64,000 nucleotides of DNA from Vermamoeba vermiformis (taxonomy: Eukaryota), in NCBI GenBank assembly GCA_045837725.1, contig JBEWZL010000232.1, positions 372,001-436,000 of the forward strand. Direction: 5' to 3'. Each line of letters begins with the position of its first letter. Position 1 is the stretch's first letter. The translations under genes and the position numbers were made by a program. This document shows, one piece after another, positions 10,715-64,000 of this stretch. Below the pieces are notes generated by a model. That model worked only from the letters and a program-made list of their open reading frames with translations. It searched no databases and was not told the origin of the DNA.

Positions 10715-13448
10715 ATGCAAGACAAGGAGGTATTTATACCACAATCGATACTCCAAAGCGAGGACTTCGACGCGATCAAATCCGCGATATTTAAAAAATT
10801 CAAAAACTCGCTTACCAATGTTCGAACGTGGGCGGCTCAATGCTTACATAAGGTAATATTTGATTAATTTATTTTAAATAACTGAAAAAATGTCAAACTG
10901 ATAATTTTTATTCGATCTAGTATCGCCAAGATGACATTTATTGGGGACCTGTGGTCACCAAAATATTAATATATTTGGCCACACAAGCCCAAACAAAAGA
11001 TAATCTAATCGACAAAATCTTAAGCCAAAGTTCGCATTTTTGGATTTCCCGACTTGGTAAGTCCCTTCTGATCTCGCGGATCACCTTTAAATAATACTAT
11101 TACTCCTTTAGATAATTATTTAAACGATGAAGTGGGCTCGGATTGCTTATTCTTCCTTTATAAAATGAACTTTGTGACGGTGAAAGCCGTTACGCAAAGT
11201 CCCTCGCTGTTTGCTCATTTTGCGCGCTTATACAACGTTCATGACTTTATGAATATTAAATACGAAGGTATATTATACTAATACAAAAGCGCGTAAGTAT
11301 TTTCTAATGGATCTGCCCAATTTTTTTGAAGGCTTTTCGCTGGTCTATAATTTTTTGGTTGAAAATATGAACAGTAAAGAAGCGCTGATTGGAATAGAAA
11401 AATTATTTGAAGTCTATCAATCCGACTTTAAATACATTATCAGTCCAAGCCTCGCCGAGATCCGTTTACTCGTTGAGAAATACACGAGCTACAACACCGC
11501 AATTATCAACTTTTTGAAGGAAACCAAACTATCGTTTCCTGCAGTAGGTAAATATTAATACTAAGATAATTATTAAGGTGTATTTGGCCACTCAATAATG
11601 ATTTCAGATAATGCCTGCATTTGTTTGTACAGACCGGTAATTGAGCCGTATGCGTGGTACACCGTTAAACAGTACGTATAATGTGGCTACTATTATAATA
11701 TACAAGTATTAATGAAATTATTGTTAATAGGCCAGCAAAAGTTTCCGGTACGCGAAGATTGTAGTACGCAACAATTAACATTAATATTCTAACTGCTGTA
11801 TTATGGTAGAAATTCAACGTTTTTTGCGTGATATAAGCGAAAAAAAATTCAAAAAGAGATTAGAGTTAAAAGGAAAAAGTTTGTTAACACTTACAAACGC
11901 TGGCATTTGTAAACAAATACTCGCCGAAGTAGAATGGTACCTAGTACAAGCCTATGGTATGTCTTATTCATTTAAACTGATATGACTGACTTTATCAGAT
12001 ACGGCGTATAAGCTCGATGAATCTGCTTTTTGCCTGCCGATCGGATTCACTCCGACCTCGCAATTTCCGTTGAATATGCTTCCAACGGAGATTACAGAAG
12101 CAATTTTATCAGAATTTCAAACCGATCAATTAGCACGAGCAATATTCTGTTTGTCGAAGGGTTGTAATCAGATCAAGAGAGTTTTTGATTGGAGAAGATT
12201 CTTGAAGCGTCAATTCCCGCTAAAATATGATATGATCAACGATACATTAGCAGAAAATCCGAATTTCAAATGGAATCACTATTGTATGGTTCAGAACAGG
12301 TACGACAAGGCTAATCGAGTAATGACACTTATTGACCGTGTCATTTTTAGGCTCAGATCGAATTGGAGTCAGGGTGCATTTTCCAAATTAGTTCTCCCTG
12401 GAAGCCCGTGCTCGATGGATGAAAATTTGTTCATCGGATGCAGCAAAGTTCCTCGTGCCAATGACACAAACTTCGAGTCAGACGAATTTCTGTTCTTTTC
12501 GCCAAACGATCAGGAAGGAAGCTTTGAGTTGACAGAAGAACACGTGGGATACTATTGGCTGAATTGGAACGATACAAAGGATTATTACAAGGTCAATTTT
12601 TTTGCGCCGGTCTCAGATGCGAGAGTGTGTCTTATCGACACTATTTCAGAACTTCCAAAGATTGCTTTAGTATTCAGACACTATTTGGAGATATGGGAGG
12701 GCAGCTCGATGTTAGCAGATGTTCAGACACCGATATTAGACCCCTTGGTCAGGAGATCCGTGTATCACAACCAGTCACTCTACATCGGTAACTTTTCAAG
12801 TATTTTTTTGGGCCACTTGAATTAATTAATCCAATATTAGGTCCATATAAGTATCGTCTGGATAACAACATGGCGAGAGAGCAGGTTCTAGGAGATCACG
12901 AGTTCGTGTTGGACATTGGCCGCAAAAACGATTTAATGATTTGCGGTTCTCGGTTAACCATCAAATCGTGCTCCGATCATCAAACGGTAGCATCATTTGC
13001 CAGTCCAACAGCGCTGGCCAGCAGTGCTGTATTTTTGGATGAGCATAAGTTTGCCGCAAATGCATCGCAAGTCGGAATAATTCGCCTGTTTGACGTACGA
13101 AATCTAGGGGCTGGTGCGACATCTCAGGTAATCACTGAGAAAATTTTTTTACTATATTTAGAAAACACAGTCGTTTCTAACCGTTGCTTTGATGAATTTC
13201 ATCAGATTGATTTGCACTCGCTCAAACACAAGTTCGGATCGCTTGACGGACCGAATCAACGTGCCGTAAGCGAAATGGATAATGGCATAGTCAATGTATG
13301 GAACTTGAAGACTTGCAAATGGACGACAGCTTTTGACGCCAATCAATCGGCCACAGAGTATCTCATCAACGCGAGATATTTGTGCGCTGGATCTGCGAAT
13401 GATACGACAAACGTATTTGATTTCAATAACAACGCAAAGTATTATTAG
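10715..13448 (+). CDS. F-box protein with C-terminal WD40-like repeats
   Basis: F-box-like FPLNMLPTEITEAILSEF...CLSK at ~12064-12160; WD-like ends GIIRLFDVR, GIVNVWNLK, TTNVFDF; upstream exons start at MQDKEVFIPQ. Confidence 0.7.
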
Positions 13449-13791
13449 CTTACGGAGCGGACTATTCAAAAAGGTAACGAGAGATTTACCAGCGCAAATG
13501 ATACGTGTCAATTTTTTTTTCGTGATAAATTGCAAATTTAGCTTTATAGGCTCTTCAATCGGCCCAATCAATAGTTCAATCAATATGTTGTGATGTAAAG
13601 CTTGCTATTTATAAATTTCTTCGTATAAGCATCATAAGCGAATTGCAATATTTTTTGTGATCCGCGACTCATACTTCAAAAATCAAAAATTACAATCATT
13701 ACCCGCTGTTTTGAAGCATTACTTTTTGTTTTTTCGAAACCGAAACTGAATAGCACAAGGGCAGTGTATTATACCTTGTGACTATAATACC

Positions 13792-16329
13792 ATGGCCGAA
13801 GAAAGCACGGCAAAACGACGGCTCATAACAATTGCAGCCTTGTTGGGCCTCATTACGGTTCAAACATTGGTCGCTATCATTTACAAATTGGCACAAAAGA
13901 ATGGCAAATACGAGTTCTCAACAGCTTCAGCACTCACCATGGCAGAGTTCATCAAGATCTGGCTCAGTTTTGGTTTGCACGTCAAAGCGACTGGATGGAA
14001 AGACGCAAAATCAGAATTATTATCAAATTTGAAGAAAGCACCGTATATTCAATTAATAGGATTGGCTCTATCGTACTTCATCAACAACCATCTCAATTTC
14101 TACTTGTTTTTATGGGCCGATCCGGTATCCATAACTGTCATGAAATCAGGTGCTTCTTTTATTACGGCGATTCTATCATGGATAGTTCTATCAAAATTAA
14201 TAACAAAAGTTCAATGGAGCGCCATCTTGCTGCAAGTGGCAGGCTTGTGTTTGTTGCAATACGATCCGTGTCGCCATTCAACAACTCTCAAACTCAGTGG
14301 CTACTTCGTCATGTTCATCAGCGTTACCATAGCATCGGCTAATGGCATTTGGAATGAACGTCTGCTCAAGTCTTACGATTGTTCTCTCAACATCCAGAAC
14401 ATGATCTTGTACTCAGCCGGAACAGTCTTCAATTTCACATTATTCCTTGCTAACAGTAGTGAAATGGGCTTTTTCCAAGGTAAGCATAACCTCCATTCCG
14501 ACGCTTAATTAAAAGGCCGATTTTTCCGAATTTGAAATTATCTTCCGTTCGAAAAGGAAACAATTTGAAAAATTGAATAGAAGCAAAATTAACCGGGCCT
14601 ATTGAATTTAATATCCGAAAAAGATTAAAAAGTTAGATTATTCGCCAGATCCAATTAACGAAATCTCTTATTAAATTAGGCTACGACTTTCCAGCAGTCG
14701 TCATCGTGTTTCTCAACGCAGTTATTGGCTTGACGATCACTGTTATTTACAAATATACCAATGCCATTGCAAAAACGTTCTGTTCGGCAGTTGCAACAGT
14801 GGTGTTGTTCATCGTGAATGCAACGCTGTTCAACTTGCCTGCATCGCTCAATTCAGTGCTCAGCTGCATTGTCGTGTTCGTGGCAACGTATTTGTACACA
14901 CAAGGTGCAATGGCTGCTCCAAGCGCTCCAAGTACTTCAACCGCATCCACGAATGGAAAAGACTACGATAAATTACCTACGAGCGAATTGGATATTGAAG
15001 AAGAACCTGTTCAACGATCTAGATGGTCTAAAGCCTTTGGACAGATTACTGCTAGGCGAATTGGCGGATTAATATTTACCGCGGTTGTGATCGCCTCGTT
15101 GGTGATCTCGTTCAACTCCGTTTCCACCGGATCTCCTCCAGTAGTTCAAGAACCTCAAACAAATGATACAATAGTAGTACCTACGAGTACTGTTGAAGTA
15201 CCTACAAGCCCTATTGCAGTACCTGTTCAAGTTGGAGAACCTCCAAGACCTTCAGCCACATCCATGCTTCGCCAAATGGATCTGTCTGGAATAGTATTGC
15301 CACCTCAAGCATCATACTTCGACGATATACTAGTAGTATTGCACTTCAACAATCCTCGCTACAACCATTTGCCGATCCTGCTCGAGCAATACGGCAAGGT
15401 ATTCAAAAACCTGCTTGTATGTGGCCAACAACCGCATCCTATGGTCGATTATGTCTGCAAGACCAGTGAGTATTAATATTATATCTCTATATAGTATTTT
15501 AATCCTCATCGGTAAATTTCAGATCAAGTGAACAATGGCGGGCATACAATGTACGGATGCATTGCCGATTTAATGGAAGCTTATCCTTCGAACTACACTG
15601 GTTATTTATCATTCCACTTCGATTTGTTCGTCAATTACTGGAATTTATACGGCTTGGACAAAAATAAGACTTGGATCACGAAGACAAAAGACAACGAAGG
15701 ACCTCATTCCTTGGCCAAGTACCCGAAGAATAGCCCATGTGAGTACTATACTACTAACTATGACATATATGCTAACTCTCATTTAGCTGGTTGGGGTTGG
15801 TGGGGATCGAAGTGGGGAGTTCAAGCAGTGCGACGGGCGATGCCTAACATACCAACGGAATACAGAATGAAGATGAATGAAAGCACTGGAGCAAACGATA
15901 TATTTTGGAGAGGTATAATTCATCGCCGTAATCCGAATTCGCTTCGTTTATTAATTTTGTTGGATCACATCTAGGCATGGGAGATTTATTTTACGTCCCG
16001 CAACGCATGAGGACGGAGTTTATATCCCTCACCCGCATTTTTGTTCGGGCCGAGGTATTTTTGGAGATTGCTATCCCGACTATACCCATTATAATGGAAT
16101 TACCGGAAACTCCCGTCCATTTGTCAGGTATGACTCAATTAACGTCTATTTAAGTCAATGCTAATAATGTATAATAGGTACATTTGATTGGAGTGGTAAG
16201 AGTTTCGAACAGTTCTGGCATAAAGAGCACCATTTTGGCCATCCGTTTCAGTTCCACCAAAAAGGCATGTACGAACGGTTCCGACAGAGTATGAGTCTAG
16301 GCTATGAATTTAATGTTACTGCGACCTAA
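13792..16329 (+). CDS. Nucleotide-sugar transporter (SLC35A-like) fused to a STELLO/DUF288-C-terminal-like putative glycosyltransferase, copy A
   Basis: Transporter motifs TMAEFIK, YFINNHLNF, FITAIL..QWSAILLQ, GIWNERLLK, LNIQNMILY, YKYTNAIAKTF. Then an extra TM and a Pro/Thr stem, then FDDILVVLHFN..YGKVFKNLLVCG, GYLSFHFD..NYWN, GMGDLFYVP, VFLEIAIPT, HPF. The transporter-to-GT junction lies inside one ORF (14706-15476). Confidence 0.85.
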
Positions 16330-16672
16330 TAGCGCGAGTAAAATAATAAAATTGTGTACATTTTCGAAGCAACACGAGACCGAACTGCTCGCTAGATCTC
16401 TATTATAATCTCCCGATAAATTTGTATTGAATCATATATTCTTGCATCGATATAAGATATTGAGCTACAGTGCGAAGGATGACGGTCAATTTAGGACTTC
16501 AGACAAGATCGGAATGACATCCCCGAAAAAAAGAATTGATAGATCTATTATTGAATGGAAGCTCCAAAGATGATACCTTGTGAGCGTTGGTACACCCTAT
16601 GTATTGGAGAATAGGAATAGGATCCAGGTTAAAAGGCCGTTGATTTACTTTTCTTGGTACATCCGGGATCTA

Positions 16673-18211
16673 CTACAGCTTCAAAATGTCAGGCAATCGT
16701 TCTTCGTCTCGGGGCAAGTTGACTGCAACAACGGTCGGATAAGGCATAGTACTCGTATTATAGTCATTAATAGTATAGCGCACGGCGTGGAACAAGCCAT
16801 AAATAATTTGATGGTACGGGACGTTGAGCGCCTTCATTTGTTTTTCAGTTGCCTCCTTGAAACTCTCGTCGCGGGAGGTCATCAAAATTACTCTTGAACG
16901 ACCCGTATTATAGGCACGTCTAATAACCTCGACTGAAGGAAAAGAGAATTGTTAATTTTTGGATGCGCATGAAAAATAAATTATTAAATTAATCAGGGAC
17001 GCTTACTATTTTTCTCCAGAGGTCCAGTAGTTCCCCAGAAAGGTGGAAAATGTTGCGCTGATGATTTAACCAGAGTACCATCGATATCAACGAGTAAATT
17101 GTTGAAGGTCTGTTTGTAACGAGTCCATGCTTCAATTGTGCCCCAATCTGCGTATTCAGTAACGTGGTGAGCCCTGAAACGTTTATCTTCTAACATTAGG
17201 CCATAAATTACATGAGAAATCTGAAGAATAAATTATTAATAATTATTGAAAAAATTAGAAAATAATTATTTCTTCGCTTCTTACATAAATTTCTCCTGTG
17301 TGAGGCAATGAAACTAATTCTTGGTATTTTTGAGAGAACATTTCGGCAGAACTGAACGAATAGCCACCAACGCAAAATCGATCGGAGATGACCTTCTTTT
17401 CGACAATGTTCTCAATGAGATCGTCATGGTGAATAACAATGAAGCTCTTGCCGCCAACGTCGTAGTCAGTATTATCAATCTTCTTCGTACACACAAAGTT
17501 GCCCGGTTCGATCCTAGAATAACGGTAAAAAAACTTGCTTCACTGAAACTACAAATTTGATATACCAAATGCAAATATCCGTATACTGCATGTAATTAAC
17601 TGCATATTACTATACGGATACAGCTGCAGTATTAAAACAAAATCATAACGAAACTTTCAGATCATAAAAATTCCAATCTTTGCATGCATTGAAAATGATT
17701 AAAAACTAGGACGAACTATTATACGTTCGCTTTATAATAATATGTTAGCGATATATTAAACCGAAATCATCTCGTGTTTCAATATTTCAGTAAGGAAAGC
17801 AAATTTTCTATGATTGCGAAAATCAATCTTTTCTATTCCTTACCTGTATTGATAACAATTATCGCAATCTTTGACAAATATCGGTCCAGTAATATTCGCT
17901 TTGACTATTCCTTGGTGCACTGTCATCGATTGATCGGCGGTGGGTGCATCCAGCAAAACTGGCTCGACTTTGTTCAAGTAGCTCTCGTCCTTGAACATAT
18001 TCAATACGAGGTCTATTCTTCCTTCCAAATACTTATCGACATGTTCTTTGAGCAAAATAACGACGATTCGTTTGACGTTTGCAAGATCTAACTTTGCAAG
18101 TGCATCCACAATCATGGCTTTGCCGTTGGGCTGAGTGAGAAGCCATTTTGGCTTTCCTCCTCCAAATCGCGTTGAGCGGCCAGCGGCAGGCAGTACTAGT
18201 GTGGTAGACAT
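16673..18211 (-). CDS. Sugar-phosphate nucleotidyltransferase fused to a HAD-family phosphatase (bacterial capsule-locus type)
   Basis: Exon 1 has LPAAGRSTRF..KPKWLL and VKDCD; exon 2 has IVEKKVISDRFCVGGYSF; exon 3 has DWGTIEAW followed in the same exon by HAD motif I VDIDGTLV; exon 4 has MTSR and INDY. Exons 1 and 2 join in frame (YR|IEPGNFVC). Confidence 0.88.
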
Positions 18212-18386
18212 GTCTTGGTTGAATTGCGAATTAATTTTTTTGGTTCAACCCGACGAAGTTTCACACCGCGGTATAATAATTAAAACACATAAACGTAACA
18301 TCCGGGCAATTCGCCTGATATATAATCACGTAACTAGCGGTTTTTTAATTAAATAAGAAACGATTTATTAAATATATACAAACAAA

Positions 18387-19289
18387 TTACATTTTAACGG
18401 ACTGGACTTCGCGTTCCAGCGCCTCGAACAAAAATGAGATTACGTGCTCTTCTTTCGCGTATTGAACTACGCGCAGTAAGTTCAGAATTTGGAATGAGGT
18501 GTAGTATGCTTGGTACCACTCATACTTGGCGAAATGATTCACGCACAATTTGTCCAAGTACTTCAATGCAATCGCCATCTTGGTGCGATCCAATTCGTCC
18601 ATATTCTTCAACATGGTGCTCGTCCAAGCATGCGCTGTGTCTTGTCGCCATTTAACTACGTCTTGCAAGGGCGACTCTAAGAACGTATTCAAAAAGTCGA
18701 TAACGTAGATCTCTTTCGTGTAGAACTGGCCCAATGAGTTGATTAAGACGTTAGACATGGTTAAATCACCGTGGCAGCGTCCTACAGGTAACAAAACGGT
18801 GCATTTCTCGGGAGTAATCGTGGTCTCCAAGTACTTGACACATTTTTCCAAAGTGTTGAAGTACTTCGGGTTGTCAGCGAGTATCTTCTGAACGTGCGTA
18901 TTATTCTTCATTATATTAAGCACTTCTTTTGTCTTCGATAAGAACACTTGCACATCCAGCGGTTGCAACTCGGATTCGGCGATTTCATTTTGAATCAGCT
19001 CTACAATAGCATCGCTGAGTGAAGTAAGACCATCCTTCGTGCATGAACTCGCATAGCTAAAGCATTCGTTGTAAGGCAAATACTCCATCTCGACCGTGGT
19101 TCGATCGGATCCGTCTGACTTGCACGAGTGAATTCTGGCGGTCTTAATTTTAGGGCTGCCTTTGAACGACATTTGTTTCTCGATCTGAACTAAGAGGCGT
19201 GAGCTGCCTTGCTTGACGACGATAAAGTCGGCACCGCGTTTCATGAGGTGAACGCCGCCTTCCGGAGAATGACCTTGCAACTTGAGCAT
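18387..19289 (-). CDS. APH/choline-kinase-like phosphotransferase (capsule-locus type), intronless
   Basis: 300-aa uninterrupted ORF with Brenner-type CHGDLTMSNVL, VIDFL and ESPLQDVVKWRQD. Confidence 0.88.
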   Translation of the reverse strand: MLKLQGHSPEGGVHLMKRGADFIVVKQGSSRLLVQIEKQMSFKGSPKIKTARIHSCKSDGSDRTTVEMEYLPYNECFSYASSCTKDGLTSLSDAIVELIQNEIAESELQPLDVQVFLSKTKEVLNIMKNNTHVQKILADNPKYFNTLEKCVKYLETTITPEKCTVLLPVGRCHGDLTMSNVLINSLGQFYTKEIYVIDFLNTFLESPLQDVVKWRQDTAHAWTSTMLKNMDELDRTKMAIALKYLDKLCVNHFAKYEWYQAYYTSFQILNLLRVVQYAKEEHVISFLFEALEREVQSVKM

Positions 19290-19866
19290 TGGTGTCTATT
19301 AATGAATTACGACAATAAGAGTGGTGTCTTGTTGCGCGAAGTAACGCAATGAAATAACGAAAGTAACATTTCAAAACAACCTGCCAGTGTGACGTCTAAT
19401 CAATTCCCCAACGTAACCATAAATTTGATAAAATTCAGGCACGTGCATTAGAGCGCGGATTCTCCGTCTCATCTCTTTTCGGTTCAGTGAATATTTATGT
19501 CTTTGAATCACTCAATGGCAAAACTCGATCATTTTGATGCATTACTCCTTTGAATTTGTAGTGAATAGTCCGTACCTGTTTATCGAAAATACGGAAAGTA
19601 GTAATACAGCTACGTTGTTTATATTTGAATTACAGCAAGTAGAATCGTTTCGACTTATTTTCAACCCGGAAATGCCTTCCGCTTTGACTTCCGTTACAAA
19701 TCCGGAAGACTGATGCCGTCAGAACGACCCTTATCAGTCTCAATACAGTAGCACTATTGAACACTATATTATACCGAGCATGCTCAATCTTGGGTAATTA
19801 ATTGAATGCCGCAAAGTTTGCTATTGGATTTCACATTAAGGGTAGTTTATTAACAACGTGGAAAGT

Positions 19867-21855
19867 CTATGAATCGATATGCTCCACAGTACGACGAGAC
19901 CTGAGCCATTGCCTGACACCCATTGCTGTGCCAAACACAACTACGGAAAGGACAATAGCGAGCGGGTAGATCCACAACCCCAACTGCGTTGTCTTCTCTT
20001 CAACGACACTCTCGGCTTGAGGTTCTTCGTTGGCTGGTGAGTTAGGTTCTTCAGGCACGCAATAGCACTTCCGCTGGTAACACTCGAAGTTACATGTCGC
20101 GTTGACAGGTTTGGCAAAGTTGGCGCAATCACTGTGTGCTGAACAAGTTGTTCCGAGTGCCAAGTAGTAGTAACCTGAGCGCGGCACAACGGTGAAAGTG
20201 TGGCCTGACACAGCGGCGAACAATGAGCACTGTTTGTCCGATTGCTTTTCCTAAGTGAACAATTTGTCTTATTAGCCTCAAGTATCTCTTTGAAAACTTG
20301 CTAAAATCGCGTAGTAGTTTCCTATAGCAATGCGTACCTTGTAACAAATGGACAGTTGCATGACTGTAGAGTTAATGACAGTCGCCAGATCCTTGACGGT
20401 GATGTTGACATTGCCAGGACCGCTACTTCCTGGCACGTACATCACCTTCCAGTGTCTGTTCAGCACGTACATCAGTCCAAAGTCCGCATTGGCTTGCCAC
20501 TTCAGTTGATCTGACGAGTTGTGAGCGACACACAGCGACGAAGGGACGTCAGCAGTTGAGTCCAGAGCATTGATGTCAGTAATTTTAAAATGCGGTGAGC
20601 TAGAGGCCTCTCGTACTTCTTGACCAGCGTAGCGCGTAAGACTGGCAAAATCTTTGTTGTACGTGTCTGTCAAACCGGAAGCGATCCGTTAGATCACATT
20701 TTAATTTTTAAACTCTGTTTGTATGCAGAGTATATGATTAAGGGACGTAAAATACGTACTATCATAATTCCAAAATTGCCAAGTACCAGCGGTGAGTTGA
20801 TATTCGCGCAGGTATTGCATGTTGAGTGCGAACTTGTCAGTGTCGCTGAGCGAATCAGAATAGACCTCTAAATTATGAATTACGCCGTAGAATGGCGAGG
20901 TTGTAAATGGAGAACCTCCGAGTACCAACCAGCCTAATAAGATTTAGTTAGGCAATTTGATTTGAAACTTGATCCAATTATGGAACGAAATCTTATTCGA
21001 TTTATACTCAATTAGTATATGATTAGCTTACCATCTATGCCTTTAAATTCATCTACGAGCTGATTTTCAACCCTCATTCCGCCAATTTGCAACGAGATCA
21101 GGTTTTTGTTGAGCGAAGCGTAGATGAGCGTCGCGCTGTAGTCTCCGACATTTACAGCATTAACGTAGTCGTTGGAACATACTTGAACTCCTCTATTTTT
21201 CCAGTAAAATCCAAAACACTTCGTGTCGTACTCGTATTGAAGAGTTAAAGCGTCATTGGTCGTGGTAAAAACTAATATTCGTTAGTTCGATGCCTTCGTC
21301 GTTAATATATAGTCCATATTAATGCTTCTTACATGTAAACGGTACTGTAGTATTTCTTTCGTTCCTGGTGAACAAGGAGATCAACGCTACGATCTGGATC
21401 TTCGACGACGGGAAGATAAAAGGACCAGTTAGCGATCTAATAACTATCATTAGCATTATATTATACCTTATAATGGTCGATATGATAGCCAGGAGCTATT
21501 AAACGTAATATTTTTTGAAAATTAATGAAGCAATTTCAAGACATTACCAGAAGCTAATATGACAATAATTTAACGGCGCTTACTTGCTCTGCAACACATT
21601 TTTCGGGATAAACGCAACTGCGTTCTTATTCGCCCTAACTGAAACCAGATTCGGTTGTTGAAACGGATCCGCTTGTTTGTAAATTACTCCACGGTTGTCA
21701 GCCCATGAAAATATAGCTTTAGTCAGTGAATTTGTTACATTGAACTTTGCTGCTGCTGTTGGGAACTGCACTTCAGGGGCAGGGAATGAAAACGAGTGGT
21801 CCAAGAAATATACTAAAACTAATACAACAACTATAGGCAATAAGAAGGGTTTCAT
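19867..21855 (-). CDS. Type I membrane protein with a LamG/ConA-like ectodomain and a Cys-rich segment
   Basis: Signal peptide MKPFLLPIVVVLVLV; LamG-like ending LVLGGSP..FYGVIHNLEVYSDSLS; Cys cluster C..HSDC..C..C..CYC; TM LWIYPLAIVLSVVVFGTAMGV followed by basic residues. Confidence 0.6.
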
Positions 21856-22004
21856 TTTGTCTGCCGTGCACTACAGCTGACTAAAATACTAGAAAATCAG
21901 ACGGCAACACAAACGGAGAATTGGGTATGGTACGTAGATCTAGATCTCGGTTGCGATTTATAAAATTTGCAAATTTCTAGCTTCGGAAGCAATCAATGTT
22001 TTTA

Positions 22005-24438
22005 TTACGTCTTATATCCAGTACGCATAATCTTCCTAAATTTAGCGTACATGCCGTCTTCGTTAAACCTGAACGGATGTGCAAATTGGTACTCTGACTT
22101 CCAAAATTCTTCAAACGCCTTGCCGCGCCAATCAAAGTAACCTTAATATAGTTACGATTAATAATCATAATCATTACCCGTTGCCATATCAATGCAGAAT
22201 CTAATCAGCAATATATCACTGGATCTTTCAATTCTTTACCGGTCAAATTTGTCGGACTTGCAGGAGCTTCCAAGATATAAGGAATCGTTGGTATAGCTAG
22301 CTCTAAGAACACCTTATTCTTGACGAATAAGCGCGTTAGGGCGATGTACTCGGTTCTCAATCTTTGCGGGATGTAAAATAGATCTCCCATGCCTAGATTG
22401 AAAAACTATGTCAGATCTCGCTACTTTTCGAAAGAAATCGAATCAACGTACCACGCCATATTAAGTCATTAGCACCATAAGTATCTTGCAATCGATCTTT
22501 GTATTGCTTTGGCAGCTCTTTCATCGATTGCCGACAGGCTTTCAGACCCCATTGAGTATGCCACCACCACCATCCAGCTATTAATTGTAAAGTATAATAC
22601 GGTGAGTTACGAATATACATTTTGAAGTATTATTGTTCGGCTTACTTGGTCCGGTGGTGTCATTTTGAAACGTTGACATCGAATACGGTCCGAGACTGTC
22701 TTCTTCAGTGTACGTTATCCAAGTCTTGTTCTTATCGAAGTTGTTGAACGACCAGTAGTTCAGTAGCAGATCGAAGTGGAAGGATAAATAGCCCGCGTAA
22801 TTCGGATAGGCTTCCATAATATCGGCGATACATCCGTACATTGTATGACCGCCATGACGGACTTGGTCTGAAAGTGCAATCAATAAGTAAGCTAGAATGA
22901 GCAATGATATGAGAATCATTCTTACCTTTAGTGCAAACATAATCGATTGCTGGATGTGGATCCGGACCGCACACAATAAAGTTTTTGAAAACTTTACCGT
23001 ATTGCTCGAGCAAGAGCGGCAAATGATTATATCGTGGACTATTGAAGTGTAGGACTACCAATATGTCATCGAAGTACTTGTGCGAGGGCGGCAAAGTCAC
23101 AGACAATCTCTCGATCCGGAGCTCTCCATCCGAAACAGTGTGCGGTGTAATTTCATCAACCTGTGGTACGTTCTCGGGTTCAATCGTCTCTTCTACTCCG
23201 TTGATAATTGATTGACTTGATATAATTAGCGAAGCTATAATCACTAATGCGAAAATTAATCCGCCAATTCTTCTCGCTGTGATCTGCCCGAAAATCCTCT
23301 TCCAAATCGATTTCTTTGGTTCTATATCATCTTCTATATCCATCTCGCTCATCGGTAATTTATCGTAGTCTTTTCCATTCGTGGATGCGGTTGAAGTACT
23401 TGGAGCACTTGGAGCAGCCATTGCACCTTGAGTGTACAAATACGTTGCCACGAACACGACAATGCAGCTGAGCACTGAATTGAGCGATGCAGGCAAGTTG
23501 AACAGCGTTGCATTCACGATGAACAACACCACTGTTGCAACTGCTGAACAGAATGTTTTTGCAATGGCATTGGTGTATTTGTAAATGACAGTGATCGTCA
23601 AACCAATAACTGCATTGAGAAACACGATGACGACTGCTGGAAAGTCGTAGCCTATTTTAATAAGAGATTTCGTTAGTTAAATCGGATCTTCGCGTGTCAA
23701 AATTAGTTTTTTCCGTAAATCATGAAACAATTCGTTAATACGATAAGTACCTTGGAAAAAGCCCATTTGACTGCTATTAGCAAGGAATAATATGAAATTA
23801 AAGACCGTTCCAGCTGAGTACAAGATCATGTTCTGGATGTTGAGAGAACAATCGTAAGACTTGAGCAGACGTTCATTCCAAATGCCATTCGCTGATGCTA
23901 TGGTAACGCTGATGAACATGACGAAATAGCCACTGAGTTTGAGAGTTGTTGAATGACGGCACGGATCGTATTGCAACAAACACAAGCCTGCCACTTGCAG
24001 CAAGATGGCGCTCCATTGAACTTTTGTTATTAATTTTGATAGCACTATCCATGATAGAATCGCCGTTATAAACGATGAGCCGGATTTCATAACGGTAATT
24101 GACACCGGATCGGCCCATAAAAATAGATAAAAATTGAGATGGTTGTTGATGAAGTATGATAGAGCCAATCCTATTAATTGAATGTACGGTGCTTTCTTCA
24201 AATTTGATAATAATTCTGATTTTGCGTCTTTCCATCCAGTCGCTTTGACGTGCAAACCAAAACTGAGCCAGATCTTGATGAACTCTGCCATGGTGAGTGC
24301 TGAAGCTGTTGAGAACTCGTATTTGCCATTCTTTTGTGCCAATTTGTAAATGATAGCCACCAATGTTTGAACCGCGATCAGCCCGATCAACGCGGCAATA
24401 GTTATGAGCCGTCTTCTAGTAGGGCTTTCTTCGGCCAT
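22005..24438 (-). CDS. Nucleotide-sugar transporter fused to a STELLO/DUF288-C-terminal-like putative glycosyltransferase, copy B
   Basis: Paralog of 13792-16329 with a matching exon layout. The transporter part is nearly identical; the GT part is diverged (GYLSFHFDLLLNYWS, GMGDLFYIP, VFLELAIPT, AHPFRF); stop at 22005-22007. Confidence 0.85.
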
Positions 24439-24498
24439 TTTATATATACATGTATTATACTCGGTGAGGCGAATTACAAAATGAGCCTGAGTAACGAA

Positions 24499-24818
24499 TC
24501 AAAACGCAATTTTTACGTCTGATGTCATACGTCGCTCCTTTTTTTGTTGTGTGTACCATCAAAACGCATTATGCCTCAATATGTGTTGTGCATTGCGGTA
24601 ATGTCTTGAAATACAGTATTGATGTCTCGGGTAAAGCTTTGGTACGCTTGATTTGTGTTCCGTAAAAGTAATGAAAACCGTTTTTCTTCGGATCTTGATT
24701 CAATTCGCTTAGGAGGCCCAATTGCACTCCATATGTTATTTAATACGGAGAATTAGTATTGTTCGTATTTTAAGTCTCCGTATGAGCTTGCGAGGCTAAA
24801 AATGTCATTGCGTTTTGA
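24499..24818. promoter_or_regulatory. Repeated TCAAAACGCA motif in the divergent promoter between transporter-GT copy B and GH32
   Basis: TCAAAACGCA at 24499-24508 and 24559-24568, and its reverse complement TGCGTTTTGA at 24809-24818. Confidence 0.45.
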
Positions 24819-24862
24819 CATCCACATTCAAATTTTCGTCCTAAACAACAGAAGCACAAATC

Positions 24863-27039
24863 ATGTGGTCATTGCAATCAATGCAACGTATAGTACTAGT
24901 ATGTTGCCTTGTATTCGTTACTGTTGCTGTTAGTGAGCTGCAAGATCCAGCTCGACCAAAGTTTCATTTTCTGCCGGAAGAAAATTGGTAAGTAATTGAT
25001 TTCAACATATCTCAATAAGGGTTATAGTATATTTATGAATATAGTCTAGCAAATAGACGACAAAAATATTGCACTTTGCCATCCTAATTATCTTACCCTA
25101 TAAAAAGGCTGAACGATCCCAATGGAATGTTTTATTTTAATGGTTATTACCATGTATTTTATCAATATGCGACGACTGTTCAATGGACCAATTTGAAATA
25201 TTGGGGCCACGCTGTTTCCAAAGATTTAGTCACTTGGCAACGCTTACCTATCGGACTTTATCCCGATCAACGTACGTTCTCTCAATTGCCAAATTCATGC
25301 TAACATATATGGCATAGCTGGCGCTGATATTTATGGAGTTTGGAGGTAAGCAAAGGAAAGTTCCGCTCTCAAAAAATTAATTTGAAATTCTTTTTTCTAT
25401 TTAGTGGCAGCGCTATCGTAGTCAATGATAGTATGATTATGGCTATATATACTGGTATCAATCAACCCACTGTAACTGACGACGGAGCGCAAGTAAGTTA
25501 ATTTTTTTTGTTCCGCGAAGATTTATTGCTGAGAGACTAATTCCCCGTTAGACGGTCTGCCTAGCCTATCCTAATAGTACTGATGGCATTCTAGTCAATT
25601 GGTACAAAGACACCGCCAATCCCGTGATATCTGGCCCTCCAGATTTCTTGCAAGGTTTACTCGTGGCATATCGCGACCCGTGCATTTGGAACCAAAACGG
25701 AACCGTAAGAACAAATCCAACGATTGCAGCACTACGTAGACTAACTATAGCCTAGTACTACTTCATTTTGGGTAGCGGAGTTCGTCATTTGCATTCGATT
25801 GCGTTGTTGTACAAGAGCACGGATCTGCACTCGTGGAGTTACGAAGGCGTATTTGCAGCAGGCAATGACGACGAAGGCTGGGAGTGGGAGTGTCCTGATT
25901 ACTTCAGCCTGCCCACCCCCGACGGCAAGACAGTAGATTGCTTGTTCTTGTCGATTCCTGGCACTGGCATTGGTTGGAAAGTTGGGCACACTGACCTCGC
26001 GACGATGAGATTCCATTCTCGGTCTGGCTCTGCTTTCCGTTATGACGTTGGTTGGAACTACGCACCTAGAAGCTTTTATGATCCGATAAAGGTCCGTAAC
26101 GAGTTCCTATTGATATTCCTAACATTTTTCATTAAGAAACGTCAAGTTCAGTTCGGGTGGTTAAATGAAGGCAGATCTACCGACAGTAAGACATTGTATT
26201 GATACTTACTATTTGATATTTAGTCTAACATGATCATACTGTTAGTTAACGAAAAAGAAGGATGGGCTGGTGTGATGACACTTGGCCGCGAGATCTACGT
26301 GTAATGCAACTTTTTTGACGCGTTAAAAGTATCCCTTGGCTGACGTTTTTATCGATGCACCAGACGTGAAGATTATACTCTCGGATTCCGTCCCCTCGAA
26401 GAACAACAGCAGCTCAGAACAGGGGTCATTTTCACGATGTCAAATTACACGTTCCCGACAAATTACCTCAACTGGCACAACGTGTTCAGAGAATTCAAAG
26501 GCAACCAATACGAGTTCATTGCTAAGTTCAAAATCTCCAAGGCTTCGCAGACCTCGTAAGAAAATCCGAATCTTTTCTGAGAATTATTATGTAGTTGACC
26601 TGACCGATTATTTTTAGCGATCGATTTGGTTTGATTTTGTACGCAGATCCAGGCTTCACTGAATACACGAGAATATTTTTCGACATGTCCGCCAATACCG
26701 TGGGCTATGATCTCACACGCGCATCGACCAATTCACAGACTGATCACAGCATTAACCAGTTGAATTACAAAATCCCCTCGGATACTTTAACGTAAGCTCT
26801 TTATTATTTCATCGAACAATTACAAGACTAACAGTGGATCCGATAGGTTGCAAGGGTTTGTCGACCACTCAGTGATCGAAATATTCGTCAACGAACAAGT
26901 CGTAATAACACCGCGAGTGTACCCTAACAATCCAGATTCGAAGCACATTGGCCTGTACTACGAACAAACAGCTGAAACACAACCCTCGAAGATTGTCCTC
27001 GAGTCTTTGGTGATATACGGCGTTGATTCTATTTGGTAG
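24863..27039 (+). CDS. Secreted glycoside hydrolase family 32 (beta-fructofuranosidase/invertase/inulinase-like)
   Basis: Signal peptide; RPKFHFLPEENW|LNDPNG, WGHAVSKDLVTW, WSGSA, YRDP, WECPD; C-terminal beta-sandwich FVDHSVIEIFVN..TPRVYP. Confidence 0.95.
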
Positions 27040-27100
27040 AAATAAAAACTAAAAGTGATTTTAATCGTTTTTTTTCTCCAAACGAAAAGTGGAAATTGCA

Positions 27101-27122
27101 AGGGTTAGGGTTAGGTTTAGGG
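27101..27122 (+). repeat. Short interstitial TTAGGG-like tract
   Basis: AGGGTTAGGGTTAGGTTTAGGG between two convergent 3' ends. Confidence 0.5.
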
Positions 27123-27224
27123 TAAAACATTTTTTCAAATTTTTCTTTAGTTTTCGAACCGGCTATGAACAGAACCGGGCAAGAACTTTAGCGATCTATT
27201 TATTAAATTATAAATATAATTGTT

Positions 27225-28413
27225 TTAATCATTTGAATAAGAATAATCGCTGTCGCTCGCATCTTCAAACTCATGATCGTCTTCAAATTCATCGTCCTCT
27301 TCGTCCAACACAAACTCTTCATCGTTATCATCGTCATCTTCAAATGTAATATCAGGATATTTCTTGCGCGCTTCGATTTTCCAAGTCGGTCGTACGTTCA
27401 CAAAGTACGTAATTGACAAGTGCTTTAACGTCTTCAAATTATCTACAAACTCGTTGAGCGCTGCTTCGGTGACTTTAACTGCAGTTGAAAGCACTGTTAG
27501 TATCAAATATAATCGACTATTTTGCATTGCAAGCTAAACTTGCGATCCGGATTTCGAACAATTATAAATAAATCATATAGGGTTATAATACTTGCGACAT
27601 AAATGAAAAATATACTATTATTAAGGTGTTAAGTAATGATCTATTGAAGGAACTGAAGTTCAAAACGTGATCTGCGGAAATTGTTTCGTGTAGTAGACGT
27701 ACTTGAATACAACATCACCACGCTACGTAATGAAGGATGCTTTGATAATGTTTTGAGCGCTTCGTTGGTGAATTTACACGTCTCCAAGTTGAGCACACGA
27801 AGATCTGGAAATTTGAGCAGATCTGTCATATCATCATCGTTCAAATTCGAGCAAACAAGGTCGAGGTGCATTAGATTAGGACACAACTATAATGAGAATA
27901 ATATTATTAATCAAATACGGTCGTATTTAATTTTTGAACTTCAATATTTTTACCTCCGCTAGTCTCGTGAGATCGTGCCGTTCAGGAACATCGTCTAAAT
28001 TAAGGCGCATAATGCACCAAGCACGTGAACCAAATGATTTCAGTGAATCAAAGGACATTTTGACCAAGTGATGACGCCAAAGCGAAACAGATTTGCTAAT
28101 CTCGAAAAAGTACTTGCAGATCGCACCGCAATTAACTATAACGATAAATTTAGATAAAATATTATTAAGTATGTGCATTTCTTACCAAGATCAGGCACTG
28201 TTAAATTAGAGAATATTTTCTCGACGATCTAAAAAATATTTTGTTAATTTAGAAAATTAAAGTAATTATTCACGCAGCAAAACTTACTTCGCCCGGAAAT
28301 ATATCGAGAAAATCAGGTATTTGAGCATTTTCGAATTGAACTAATCTTTGTTTTTTCGCTGCAGGCTCATCTTCCGCAAGAACTTCTTGTTGGATTCTCT
28401 TTCTCTTGCTCAT
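27225..28413 (-). CDS. F-box/LRR protein with an NLS and an acidic tail
   Basis: MSKRKR...PAAKKQR, F-box-like FLDIFPGE|IVEKIFSNL, LRRs CPNLMHLDLVCSNL and LRVLNLETCKFT, D/E-rich C-terminus. Confidence 0.75.
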
Positions 28414-39465: not shown

Positions 39466-42045
39466 ATGTCGGCAATTTCAACGAGACTTGTTCTTCAACT
39501 TGCCATAATAACCGCCCTTGTATTGGGCATTCGATGCGGTAAGTAAGGCATTATGCCAGCTAGTACAATAATAATATGCGTAGTTTTTTAATTCTACGAT
39601 ATTGACGTTATTATTTATTTCAGCGATTTCAGCACCCGATCCGATTGATTGGATTTCGTCTGTGCCTGCATTATATCGACGCGTTGTTCCTAGCCATCAA
39701 AGTACCGTCGAGCAGAACCCTCCTTCGTTCTGGTGGTCCGGCTATCCGAGCATTAGTCCGAGTATCAACTTCACCGTATCTTTGTGGGCCAATGCCACTT
39801 CAACCGATGTAAACCCTCAGTGGACCTTCACGACATCGGTGAACTACTTGAATATACCTTTTACTCTCCCGGTTGGAACGCAGTATCTCTGGCAAGTGAC
39901 ACGTATCACCGTGTCATCAGGCACGTCAGTCCCAAGTGCTGCCCGGTCCTTCTATCTCTCACCCACGGCACTGCCTTTTGTTGTGCCATCAACTGTCATT
40001 GAAGACGTGAAGAAGTCGGCACATCCAAGGCTTCTCTTGAAAGGTGCTGCTCGTGCTGCTTGGCTCGCGTCAGATCTTGGAACAAGTTTCAAGTCTCGGT
40101 TACCTACAGTTAATATCGATAGTTACTTTGGCGTTGCGTTGCCTCCGACACCTACTGCATTGTACACCGATTATCCCAACAGTGACGCACTAGCCGCGGC
40201 TGCTTCCAACGACTACCATCAGTTTGTCCAGACAATCAACTTCTCCATTCGCAATTTGATCGTAGCCTATTGGTACAACCCTACGAATACAACAGTTCTG
40301 GCTGAGCTTAAAAGAAGAACTATTGCTTTTGCCAATGCCAACCCGAACGGAACGACGAGTCATAAAGTGCAAGACCAAGCCAACAGACTCGTCTTATTGA
40401 CACTAGCGCAATCTTACGATCTCATTGGGAACTCCTTCAACACGTCAGAGAAGTCACTCATTGTCTCGGTCATTGTCAATAGAGCCAATCAGATGTACAA
40501 CGCTTACTACCAGTTCACGTCGCTGTTGATTTCGCCTCACGATTCGCACGGCCAAAACAATCTCGGGTACATCGCGCAAGTGGCAATTGCAATGCTTGGC
40601 GAAGTGCCTGAAGCGGACCAATGGGCTACATCGATTCCCATGAACTTCAATTTGTACAGCTCTTGGAGTGCCGAAGACGGTGGCTTTGGAAATGGTTTTG
40701 GATACGCTTATTGGGATGCATATGGTGGTCCTCGATGGGACTTCTTCGAATGGGCCACTGGCGTCAAAATGAACAACAAGCAGTTCATTGTTGAATGGCC
40801 CAAGCAGTTCGTCTATTTTGGACCGTACGCTGCAATCCGTGGAGGCCTTGGCTTTGGCGATGATGGCGAGAAAGACATGATTGGTGCCATGCCCGTTGTT
40901 TGCAACAATTTGATCAGCAGAGTCGTGTACAACCATCCAGATATTTACGAAGCGGAATTGTACAACTATTATTGCTCGCAGTTCCCGAGATACAGCCAGA
41001 TTTTAAGTTTCAGATACGATGATACGATATGGTCAGCTGACTTTAAGAACGTTACAACGTTGACTAAGGACTATCCAAAGTCGATTCATTTGAAGACTGC
41101 AGGCTGGGCAGCATTCCATAGCTCATTGACGGAGTACAATAGAACTGCGCTATTTTTCAAGTCAAGCAAGTACGGCAGTTACAATCACAACAGTGCCGAT
41201 CAATTGAGCTTCACAATGGTTCACAAAGGTCAACAAATGTTCATTGCGAGCGGTCACTATATGACTCGTACATGTCACCGCAACACAAGAACTGGCGCAA
41301 GCAAACAATAGCCATGACAGGCGGTGTCACAATGGACGGTGGCATCGGTCAAGCATTCGACACTATGGAAGCCTCTGGAAATATCACGCAATACGCCACA
41401 ACCAATGACTATGACTACGTGACCGGAGATGCATTGCTTGCGTATAACGCAGGACTGGCAACGGATTCAGAGCTCCTTTTGACACGTGCCATTCGTTCAT
41501 TGGTCTATCTCAGAGGTGCAAATCAGTTCTTGATCTTTGACCAATTTGACGCTGTTTCGCCACGTCAGTTCGAGTGGAACTTCCACGCTTATGTCAATTT
41601 CACTGAAATCTCGCAATCGCCGCTGATCATTCAAAGCACCAAGGGTGGCGTGTCAACGTGTCTCAACTTGCTTTACTCGTCAACGCCAGTCACTTTTTGG
41701 CAAACAGATCAGTTCCCTAGCAACGCGAATACTACTTTGCCGAATCAAGCGCACGGTCAATTCAAGTTCAGTTCAAAGGCTACGAGTGCTTCGTTTGTTA
41801 TTCTTATTGATCCTGATTGCACAGGATCTGTCCCGCAAATTAATCAATCGAGCAATAATGAATGGTCGTTCGATATTAATGATACACACGTCATATTCAA
41901 CGGCAATGAGTTGATTGTCAAGTCTCCTGACAGTAACAATAACAATCCAAATGGGCAGCCCAGTGCAATTTCAAGCTCGAGAGATCTACATGTCAGCGTT
42001 GCAATCGCAGTTCTTTCGTTTATAATGTTGGTTCTTCAAATGTAA
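39466..42045 (+). CDS. DUF4962 + heparinase II/III-like polysaccharide (oligo-alginate-type) lyase with signal peptide and GPI-like tail; frameshift at ~41260
   Basis: VEQNPPSFWW, HPRLL, PHDSHG, DGGFGNGFGYAYW, GFGDDG, GWAAFHS, FKSSKYGSYNHNSADQLSF, then frame-shifted YDSYMSPQH, DYVTGDA, FEWNFHA; one intron only; hydrophobic C-terminus. Confidence 0.85.
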
Positions 42046-45018: not shown

Positions 45019-45079
45019 GTACTTCAAGACTTGTAATAAATAAATGTAGCATAGAATTAATGTCGTTATAATTCCCTCG

Positions 45080-45245
45080 CCAAAAAACCGAAACAAGTTC
45101 TGTCGCGGGTTCCGAAGAACTCTCTTTCCGTGTCCCAGTCCTGTGACTCACATCTACCCTACCAATGTGGGTCGGTTTTTGTGTCCGCTTTCGTCGGCCC
45201 GTTTGGGCCCGGGGGGTTGGTTCGTAACCGATTCTTGATTTTTTC
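45080..45245 (-). ncRNA. Candidate structured non-coding RNA, family unknown
   Basis: GC-rich intergenic island with stacked hairpins. Minus strand has GAGTTC-TTCG-GAACCC, CCGAC-GAAA-GCGG and GGCCC-AAAC-GGGCC; T6 runs lie at both ends; strand is uncertain. Confidence 0.35.
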
Positions 45246-45370
45246 CGATTGCAAAAACCATTGCTAGCAGCGCGATTTTTTCCGAACAATTCTGACTTCC
45301 TTTTTCATTCAAGCCGATTCTAGATTATCGTTTACCACACGTTGTGATCTTCGACATACGTAATTAAGCG

Positions 45371-62300: not shown

Positions 62301-64000
62301 AAAGCATTACCTGCAACTTTGCTAATTGCATACAACGCGCCACCAAAGGATGATTCGGCCAGATCGAAGTTTTGTTTTGCCAAGTAAATGTTTCCTTGAA
62401 TGAACAAAAGCTTGGCGGCTAGCTCTGCAGGCACCACTTGATAAATCGATAACACCTCTCTGGCCTCTTGCAGTATGCCGTGTGCTTCGTCATATTGCTT
62501 GCCGTTGAAACTCAACATTGCCTCGTTAACCAAGTGCCTTGCCTTGTCCAAAGACTGGCGGACCTCGGGATTTCCAACTTCTACAGTCGTTGCAATTGTA
62601 GCTCGAGGTTCGATGGACGCGATCATTTCTTCACTGAACGGGAAGTCCGAATCAAAGAAGTGCGGGTCATTTTGAATAGCCATCAATAGAGCCAGCTTGT
62701 ACTTGATGCCAATAGCATTGCAGATCGAATGGAACAGCAAGTACTTTGAAATATCCTGTCGCAGGTTGGTGGTAGTGAACAGTTCGTCGCCCTTTAACGA
62801 AGGTCCGTACTGTCCGAACTTGGCTTCAATTTGAACTTTGATGATATGAGTCCAGTAAAACTCCGAAGCCTTTGAATTTCCGAGCAAGATGTTAAGGTAC
62901 TTCGTAATTGCTGATTCGTGTCTGTCGTGGAACTTTCTCAACTTGCGCGCCAAGAAATTTTTCACGCAGCGACAGATCATTTCGAACAGCATCAACCTGC
63001 GATAAAATCAATAAATGCAATCATAAATAAGGCTGATTTTCTTACGTTTGCAATCTTGGACTCGTAGTGAGTGAGCGTAACAAGCCCAAATATCGAATGT
63101 TGACACCGTACTTGTGCATGACTTCTTTCAACATCTTCGTCGAATCAACGTACGGCGAATTGTGAGTAAGGTCATGAGCGAGTCTTTAAACACGTTAGAT
63201 TTACTTATGATGAACGTTAAGACGTACTTGTTAATGACAACTTGGCGCAAGTGATTGGTGGCCTCGAGCACTGCAACGTTGTGTGCTTTGTAGTTGTCAT
63301 CGAACCGCGTGAAATTCGTGAACTGCGATTCTTTGGATTAGTCAACAATAACGAGGTGTTGTTACTGAACTGCGACTTACGGCATCAGGATTAAGTGCCT
63401 TCTTATATTGCATGACGAGCTCAGGACGAAGTTGGTAGAACAAGAACCGAGCGTCTAATCCATAAATCAAGTAGGCCTTGCCGTAGATTCGTTTGCCCGC
63501 CAGGCCCGATGCCAACAAGTTCACGACACTGTTCTCTGCCTCGTCATAAAACAACGTGCCTTCGCTCAATGACTCCGAAGTCATGTTTGTTCCCAAAATC
63601 TCTTGTAGATCGGTTTGCTCGACATCAATCTTCGTAGCAACTTGTTGATATTGAGCACAATCAGAGGGGTCAAGTTTGATTGCCGTGACTTCGCGGTAAG
63701 GGCACTGCAAGCTGTTAGAATCATCGTCTTAAAGACTACAATATCGTACCTCGGGTGGAAAGACTCGTGCTGTGTCCAACACCTACATCGTGATGTTATT
63801 TTTAACTACCCAAAATGAATCCAGTAAAGCCCTTACGTAATATCGCCCGTCATTGCCCCGATGAACTTCTACATCTGCAGCTGCCCACACGGTTTTCTAA
63901 CAGGAGTTAGGACGTATTCATAATACAATTAGTTTGTAAAGATACCTTTTCGGGGCTGACTTTGTGCGGTTGAAGGTTCAGCAAACGACCAGCTTTCTCC
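59311..64000 (-). CDS. Clu-domain + TPR + RCC1-repeat protein, 5' part outside the window
   Basis: FYQLRPELV..ALNPDA, MHKYGVNIRYLG, LFEMICRCVKN (Clu); TPR-like QGNIYLAKQNFDLAESSF; RCC1 repeats KVACGRQFIVAVSKTGHVFMWG and DVACGPEH; coiled-coil end, stop at 59311-59313. Confidence 0.85.

Follow-up and report, generated by a model that had tools for sequence, protein, structure and literature searches.

A possible chimeric glycosylation cluster in Vermamoeba vermiformis: a kinase/nucleotidyltransferase-HAD cassette of prokaryotic or phage ancestry between two transporter-transferase fusion genes

Why does a kinase/nucleotidyltransferase gene pair of prokaryotic or phage ancestry lie, in the nuclear genome of an amoeba, between two genes that each join a nucleotide-sugar transporter-like protein to a glycosyltransferase-like domain, and do their products act together? 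We addressed this question in a 64,000-nucleotide stretch of Vermamoeba vermiformis DNA (the window; GenBank assembly GCA_045837725.1, contig JBEWZL010000232.1, positions 372,001 to 436,000 of the forward strand, with coordinates below counted from its first base). An initial annotation had proposed a glycan-modification cluster at 13792-27039, comprising an APH-like kinase, a nucleotidyltransferase-HAD fusion (NT-HAD), two transporter-glycosyltransferase (GT) fusions (here genes A and A2) and a secreted protein of glycoside hydrolase family GH32. All of these components were found there and their domain calls were right; a sixth gene, unlisted until now and here named gene U, lay inside the cluster. 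We read the region as a chimeric glycosylation cluster in which an acquired sugar-activation cassette (kinase plus NT-HAD) is placed between two transporter-transferase fusions, a tentative reading with nearly as much in its favour as against it. The locus is eukaryotic nuclear DNA, as had been supposed, with short GT-AG introns, spliced transcripts and a GC fraction of 0.38-0.42. Models of the six genes were built by hand from open reading frames and sequence; the kinase had a single exon and the others had introns. From left to right, the genes were:

13792-16329, plus strand: gene A, transporter-transferase fusion, 706 amino acids (aa), 6 exons (13792-14479, 14680-15465, 15523-15738, 15787-15912, 15975-16127, 16178-16329); evidence from PF04142 on exons 1 and 2, hhalign with exons 2C, 3 and 4, and transcript joints.
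18211-16673, minus strand: NT-HAD, 356 aa, 4 exons (18211-17844, 17513-17285, 17220-17007, 16932-16673); evidence from a PF12804 match, bacterial and phage homologues, and 3 introns seen as joints.
19289-18387, minus strand: kinase, 300 aa, one exon; evidence from its APH/ELK fold, an EcKL match and transcript contigs.
21855-19867, minus strand: gene U, 500 aa, 6 exons (21855-21584, 21436-21333, 21271-21032, 20933-20760, 20666-20338, 20250-19867); hand-built model with partial transcript agreement.
24438-22005, minus strand: gene A2, transporter-transferase fusion, 683 aa, 6 exons (24438-23751, 23651-22926, 22867-22646, 22577-22452, 22392-22240, 22141-22005); evidence from inverted repeats shared with gene A and the joint 23651|23751 in run X1.
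24863-27039, plus strand: GH32, multi-exon, predicted to be secreted; evidence from GH32 N and C domains, catalytic motifs, a signal-like first exon and transcript joints.

The intergenic gaps were, in the same order, 343, 175, 577, 149 and 424 bp, so that 175 bp separate the kinase from NT-HAD, which follows it downstream in the same orientation. Transcript evidence came from contigs of two public runs, X1 and X14, that were 95-99% identical to the window. Run X14 is recorded as RNA-seq, and the RNA nature of X1 is a guess; the depth of contigs does not quantify expression. Contigs of run X1 gave depth over all six genes, with spliced joints listed for A, A2, NT-HAD and GH32; in all, the models of five of the six genes agreed with spliced contigs. 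All three predicted introns of NT-HAD (3/3) were present as joints in both X1 and X14. The joints listed for gene A (after exons 2-5) agreed with its model and revealed a 48-nt intron at 15739-15786, and the single joint listed for A2 (23651|23751, X1) agreed likewise. For gene U, an X1 contig piece at 20337-20666 and a loose end of an X14 contig at 21436 fitted exon borders. Contigs of runs deposited under several other labels also carried the locus (13000-27500) at 95-99% identity.

Domain, fold and homology analyses used single exons or database relatives rather than spliced proteins. The kinase matched the Pfam family EcKL above its cut-off (2.3e-6) and the APH and choline-kinase families below theirs (choline kinase 0.002). 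Its catalytic HGDL..SN loop and IDF motif were intact, with H173, G174, D175, N180 and D198 invariant in 10 sequences. An AlphaFold2 (AF2) model (predicted local distance difference test score, pLDDT, 89.5) had a bilobal APH fold, and Foldseek returned 482 PDB matches at E<=0.001, headed by maltokinase, APH(2''), APH(4) and glucosamine kinase; searching PDB by sequence gave matches to the catalytic loop only. As modelled, the gene product is an APH/ELK-fold small-molecule kinase, and its substrate is probably a sugar. The nucleotidyltransferase (NT) part of NT-HAD matched PF12804 (NTP_transf_3; 7.3e-8, 33.2 bits, cut-off 27) and kept the P-A-A-G-x-S-x-R signature. IspD was both the next-best Pfam family for this exon (2e-4) and its best NCBIfam match (7e-6), and the NT profile matched PDB entry 4EVW, a 'nucleoside-diphosphate-sugar pyrophosphorylase', at 3.7e-8. 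In the HAD part, which was small and capless, the DIDGT, TSR and ND motifs were present and invariant. Bacterial orthologues of this part scored at or just under Pfam cut-offs (Hydrolase_3 20.9 against 20.9; HAD_SAK_2 26.3 against 27.5), and other profile matches were to the Pnkp1 phosphatase in PDB (0.0043), phrog_1238 (3.4e-10) and, weakly, TIGR01662. Judged by these matches and motifs, NT-HAD is a MobA/IspD-like nucleotidyltransferase joined to a putative small, capless HAD phosphatase. No NCBIfam model names the kinase, NT-HAD or the frequent unknown neighbours of the cassette in other genomes.

The kinase was narrowly distributed: only 11 relatives were found at E<=1e-3 among 5.8 billion proteins, three of them close (66-99% identical) and the rest 27-36% identical, and close relatives outside prokaryotes were limited to three. 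Kinases encoded on bacterial cassette contigs fell in the same ~27-36% range of similarity. We compared 160 loci with the cassette, namely the best 80 of 128 bacterial loci confirmed by the kinase and 80 contigs kept from a search that gave 138 NT-HAD relatives in IMG/VR. An NT homologue lay directly downstream of the kinase in every bacterial locus (80/80), and most of these were Bacteroidales capsule loci. The full NT-HAD fusion was present in 10 of the 80, at 37-44% identity over the full length, with carriers including Helicobacter bilis, Paenibacillus, Segetibacter, Verrucomicrobiia, Planctomycetota, a Candidate Phyla Radiation (CPR) bacterium and others; in Bacteroidales the pair lay inside capsule loci, and a separate HAD was found in 67 of the 80 bacterial loci. 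A kinase homologue was situated just upstream of NT-HAD in 68 of the 80 IMG/VR contigs, and the full-length identity of 37-44% to the window's NT-HAD held for phage as well as bacterial proteins. As a terminase was encoded in 5/5 of the contigs tested (125-234 kb), we regard these cassette contigs as large tailed phages. The giant-virus capsid family matched none of the cassette contigs, nor the controls, and this search was therefore uninformative on a giant-virus origin.

The surroundings of these pairs bear out the sugar-activation context that the initial annotation had assigned to the kinase and NT-HAD, as the prokaryotic and phage pairs sit in polysaccharide-synthesis loci beside short-chain dehydrogenase/reductase (SDR) enzymes and glycosyltransferases. 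An SDR sugar-nucleotide epimerase/dehydratase was near the cassette in 61 of the 160 loci, and other frequent neighbours were the glycosyltransferases GT2, WavE, GT11, GT6 and EpsG; Wzx and an initiating transferase also occurred nearby. On IMG/VR contigs (L081-L160; for example L104, L129 and L093) the cassette was found beside an SDR and WavE-, GT11- and GT6-type transferases, and such surroundings amount, by their predicted gene content, to a phage-borne glycan-synthesis module.

The window preserved the prokaryotic order and strand of kinase then NT-HAD, and NT-HAD kept 61 of the 71 residues invariant in bacteria, including PAAG.S.RF, PKW, KD.D, DWGT, D.DG, TSR and ND. Since order and adjacency are conserved and the kinase is so narrowly distributed, the simplest reading of the sequences is that the kinase and NT-HAD would be an operon fragment co-transferred from a prokaryote or phage, which later gained three introns. 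We consider it very probable that the two cassette genes arrived together, are intact and are expressed as a unit. A quick tree placed the window on a long branch within an unresolved polytomy of bacteria and phage contigs and names no donor. A literature search aimed at the bacterial kinase/NT-HAD cassette found nothing. Like horizontally acquired bacterial genes and clusters known from microbial eukaryotes, the cassette has acquired introns and a host-like composition (GC 0.38-0.42); unlike them, its two genes have kept their operon order, between host-type membrane proteins of matching function.

What the cassette makes is probably a nucleotide sugar, to judge from its context. Bacteria make nucleoside-diphosphate (NDP)-heptose by a route of HAD phosphatase, kinase and nucleotidyltransferase (GmhB/HddA(HldE)/HddC). 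A second bacterial three-step route, MupP-AmgK-MurU, leads to UDP-N-acetylmuramic acid (UDP-MurNAc; PMC5371407). The cassette has the same three activities as both routes, and AmgK is likewise an APH-fold kinase; in being small and without a cap, its HAD resembles the HAD-IIIA group to which GmhB belongs, in keeping with the TIGR01662 and phrog_1238 matches above. It differs from both in using other protein families, in having the phosphatase fused to the transferase and in its eukaryotic host. The heptose kinases described so far belong to the PfkB or GHMP families. That the cassette follows a heptose-like route by way of a bisphosphate is unlikely, though not negligibly so, and all hints of it are weak: phrog_1238, the best PHROG of the HAD part, carries a heptose label, and the second-best NCBIfam match of the neighbouring SDR is a heptose epimerase. 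In Helicobacter bilis (L034, 4657-8135) the kinase is followed by a GalE-like SDR, which a frame change interrupts, and then by NT-HAD and a bona fide gmhA. This gmhA, adjoining NT-HAD, is the only one in that genome, and a canonical hldE lies on another contig; GmhA was near the cassette in only 5 of the 160 loci. We considered whether the cassette replaces HldE/GmhB in H. bilis and rejected this, as canonical HldE is present.

The genes on either side of this cassette are of a different kind. Gene A encodes, in order, an SLC35A-like transporter (~aa 1-310), a charged linker, an extra transmembrane (TM) helix (~aa 357-375), a stem and a STELLO-related GT-A-like domain (~aa 441-706), and A2 is an inverted paralogue with the same architecture. 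The SLC35 family model PF04142 (Nuc_sug_transp) was covered in full by exons 1 and 2 of gene A, above its curated cut-off: exon 1 matched model positions 7-242 of 315 (1.1e-15, 58 bits, cut-off 27) and exon 2 positions 241-315 of 315 (4.7e-9, 36.2 bits). A2 matched PF04142 as well, and its corresponding halves are 97% identical to those of A; in both proteins the match covers the first 300 residues. Transport of a nucleotide sugar by this half is thus predicted, by family membership. The transporter is divergent, with only 3 matches of near length among 5.8 billion proteins. Exon 2 is one uninterrupted frame: the last transporter helices are followed by an acidic linker, an Arg-Arg motif, a strongly hydrophobic helix and then the beginning of the C-terminal domain; because it is a single open frame, the fusion of transporter to GT does not depend on any splice. 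The same exon was found in a relative (P0021) at 56% identity. SLC35A-type nucleotide-sugar transporters form non-covalent associations with Golgi glycosyltransferases. Genes A and A2 resemble these systems in their full coverage of PF04142 and in the same proposed benefit of coupling import to transfer, whereas their coupling is covalent and lies inside one exon. In our literature searches, none of the titles listed described a natural covalent transporter-GT fusion or a cluster of this kind.

The C-terminal domain had been called STELLO/DUF288 in the initial annotation. An exhaustive HMMER search with exon 3 of gene A found 36 proteins, comprising two close fragments and 34 stand-alone proteins of mostly 240-350 aa, one of which (P0024, rank 3) came from the amoebozoan Phalansterium. 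We aligned 27 of the 34 distant relatives; 16 of these 27 matched PF03385, the STELLO/DUF288 model (best 1.3e-10), and most started with a hydrophobic N-terminal stretch. Against the profile of this family, hhalign placed exons 2C, 3 and 4 of gene A collinearly at positions 32-79, 84-184 and 187-229, with probabilities of 97.8, 99.6 and 98.1. The model of a family representative, P0026 (pLDDT 86.7), had a GT-A fold and gave 30 PDB matches at E<=0.001, of which the leaders were GT-A enzymes: B3GNT2 was best (E 1e-5, template modelling (TM) score 0.47), followed by B3GalT5, C1GalT1 and chondroitin synthase, all Golgi GT-A enzymes. Searching PDB by sequence with the STELLO-like family gave no match. 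The STELLO label is therefore right as distant homology through intermediates and, going by the modelled family member, as a probable GT-A fold, and it is not right as membership of PF03385 proper. In plants, STELLO/DUF288 proteins are Golgi type II membrane proteins (PMC4906169). They act on cellulose-synthase assembly and have no established catalytic reaction. The A/A2 domain shares with them its family (by the 16 of 27 members, with a GT-A fold in the model of the representative) and a membrane anchor ahead of the domain; the anchor in A and A2 is the eleventh helix of a transporter, whereas plant STELLO has a free signal anchor.

The two fusion genes have diverged unevenly. Inverted repeats of 696 nt at 93% and 357 nt at 95% identity join A and A2, and identity falls to 73-74% further in. 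Their transporter halves share 302 of 310 aa (97.4%), with a synonymous divergence (dS) of 0.24 and a non-synonymous divergence (dN) of 0.013; their transferase halves share 162 of 260 aa (62%), with synonymous sites saturated (proportion of synonymous differences, pS, 0.77) and a dN of 0.26, and the stems are 33% identical. As intron positions are common to A and A2, it is likely that the whole gene was duplicated first and that gene conversion across the inverted repeat then homogenised the 5' halves. In the databases, a fragment of a 98% identical strain (P0072, compared with 13792-14479 and 23751-24438) has an A-like start and an A2-like end with read-through of A2's intron; it looks like a further A/A2 mosaic and suggests that the paralogues still exchange sequence. 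A single carrier specificity that feeds two transferase specificities would explain why the transporters are near-identical and the transferases diverged. This mosaic structure, like gene U and the horizontal, prokaryotic or phage origin of the cassette, had no place in the initial annotation and is new here.

A mechanism can be proposed from these parts. The cassette was very probably acquired whole; it retains its operon order, now has three spliceosomal introns and is transcribed. In the cytosol it would most likely convert a sugar phosphate to a nucleotide-activated sugar in three steps, for which there are two possible orders: the kinase may make a 1,n-bisphosphate from which the HAD removes the distal phosphate before the transferase adds a nucleoside monophosphate (NMP), as in GmhB/heptose logic, or the phosphatase may act first and an anomeric kinase next, as in MupP-AmgK-MurU logic. 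The transporter half of A or A2 would import the donor, and the extra membrane helix would lead the transporter's cytosolic C-terminus into the lumen, presumably that of the Golgi, where the attached STELLO-related GT-A domain would transfer the sugar right where it arrives. Near-identical transporters would carry the same donor, and the diverged transferase domains might serve different acceptors or linkages. Use of the cassette's donor by the fusions is possible, with the balance tilting somewhat against it, and surface or cyst-wall glycans as targets are purely conjectural. In its most specific form, in which the captured cassette and a fused import-and-transfer machine (one carrier, two transferases) would put a bacterial-type sugar, possibly heptose-like and made via a bisphosphate, on eukaryotic surface or wall glycans, the proposal is rather unlikely. 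Its logic of donor synthesis, import and transfer is coherent.

Several observations weigh against a joint pathway. The cassette's product is linked to the fusion proteins by position alone and, because the region is compact (gaps of 149-577 bp), neighbours can be unrelated. No precursor gene (GmhA, SDR or another former of a sugar phosphate) was found in the window, and the claim of a 'self-contained' pathway is not supported. No STELLO-like gene was found in any of the 160 cassette loci by tblastn or by hmmsearch of 1963 neighbour frames, and WavE, tried as a prokaryotic counterpart of the STELLO-like domain, was dismissed at an hhalign probability of 0.4. PF03385 itself had no match at E<=0.1 in the four scanned exon frames of gene A, the exons having been submitted singly, which lowers sensitivity. 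The STELLO-like family has an xDD motif with one invariant Asp, and the window reads HFD instead of the usual xDD; to our knowledge, glycosyltransferase activity has never been shown for STELLO proteins. Two scans of Joint Genome Institute (JGI) metagenomes, one based on the kinase clade and one on the fusion exon, recovered no relative of the eukaryote. Finally, the raw RNA runs X21 and X23, of the same species label, held 2 and 7 reads, mostly 90-95% alike, too few to show the strand, level or condition of expression; either expression is not universal or the species label covers a different strain.

The alternative that survives best is coincidence: the fusions would use an ordinary host UDP- or GDP-sugar, and the cassette, with a separate cytosolic purpose, would have landed between the duplicates by chance or because insertion is tolerated there. 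Consistent with this are the missing STELLO-like partner in all 160 loci, the gene density of the region, the presence of gene U, of an unrelated type, in mid-cluster, and other foreign-looking carbohydrate genes in the window (GH32 and a DUF4962/heparinase II/III-like frame), which fit a region, or a whole genome, that has taken up many genes from outside. However, coincidence has to place four carbohydrate-donor or transfer genes within 10.6 kb, and the divergence of the transporter is more expected of a specialised than of a housekeeping carrier. In a relative, the orthologues of the kinase (P0002) and of the transporter exon (P0073) are each on a 3618-base NCBI contig, which hints at retained linkage, the identity of the two contigs being unconfirmed. 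We regard coincidence as unlikely, if by no means far-fetched.

An improbable alternative to a sugar donor is that the cassette activates the phosphate of a non-sugar alcohol or polyol, following LicA/LicC or TarI logic towards CDP-choline, CDP-ribitol or similar products, and that the luminal domain is a phosphotransferase adding a phospho-substituent to glycans. The weak choline-kinase matches of the kinase (in Pfam as above and to PDB 4R77, 0.044) and the IspD matches of the NT exon would suit it, as would the mycobacterial exopolysaccharide phosphotransferase CpsY, which the fold search with the GT family also returned (E 2.2e-3). Yet these matches are all far below family cut-offs, the SDR neighbour in 61 of the 160 loci and the 4EVW match point to NDP-sugars, the top structures for the kinase are sugar and aminoglycoside kinases, and those for the GT family are sugar transferases. 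The full version of the initial annotation, in which every gene at 13792-27039 including GH32 forms one self-contained pathway, is very improbable: GH32 is divergently oriented from A2 across only 424 bp and is present in the same transcript sets, but enzymes of this family act outside the cell, where they hydrolyse sucrose and fructans or transfer their fructosyl residues, none of the other genes suggests a step that involves fructose, and GH32 lies outside the inverted repeat and is not among the ten most frequent annotated neighbour families in the 160 cassette loci.

The chimeric cluster, as we read it, thus consists of the cassette and the two fusions, with gene U and GH32 probably outside its chemistry. 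GH32 had matches to both domains of its family (N domain 2.6e-21 and 5e-16; C domain 2.3e-5 and 5.9e-12), the NDPNG, RDP and EC catalytic motifs, and a hydrophobic, signal-like N-terminal exon, and is by these features a predicted secreted protein of the beta-fructofuranosidase family. Nothing beyond adjacency ties it to the pathway, and it is probably just a neighbour. Its joints (24986/7|25107/8, 25704|25756, 26185|26246, 26555|26618 and others) agreed with the model. At 26085-26131, contigs of X1 and X14 both skip 45 nt with AT..TC ends; either they differ from the window by 15 codons in frame, or a non-canonical intron lies here. Gene U starts with a hydrophobic signal and closes with a C-terminal TM helix and a short tail, and between these it has a weak ConA/LamG-like region and a Cys-rich module, from which we predict a type I membrane protein; its sole Pfam signal was Laminin_G_3 (0.021, below cut-off). 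Recognition of a KDZ transposase in its exon 5 was below a useful level, and these matches were set aside as probably spurious.

Beyond the cluster, the flanking genes at 27641-28181 (minus strand) and 11986-13448 (plus strand) resemble the usual genes of the host; their frames are leucine-rich or F-box-like, and neither had a Pfam match at 0.001. At 39584-42045 (plus strand), frames of 575 and 300 aa matched DUF4962 (7.2e-17) and a heparinase II/III-like C-terminal domain (5.5e-7), an apparent polysaccharide-lyase architecture of bacterial type and possibly another acquired carbohydrate gene. Matches to eIF3_p135/CLU-like domains occurred in two regions on opposite strands, 43420-47882 (plus) and 62258-63007 (minus).

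If the parts work together, A and A2 would be a natural case of donor import covalently coupled to glycosyl transfer, an idea that has been discussed only for non-covalent complexes. The cassette would also show clearly, if the reading is true, that an operon fragment can pass into a eukaryote and keep its gene order. The locus would offer a handle on an uncharacterised kinase/NT-HAD cassette that is common in Bacteroidales capsule loci and large marine phages, and on the STELLO-related GT-A domain, whose reaction is uncharacterised, and it would make a simple model in which to find out what sugar the cassette produces.

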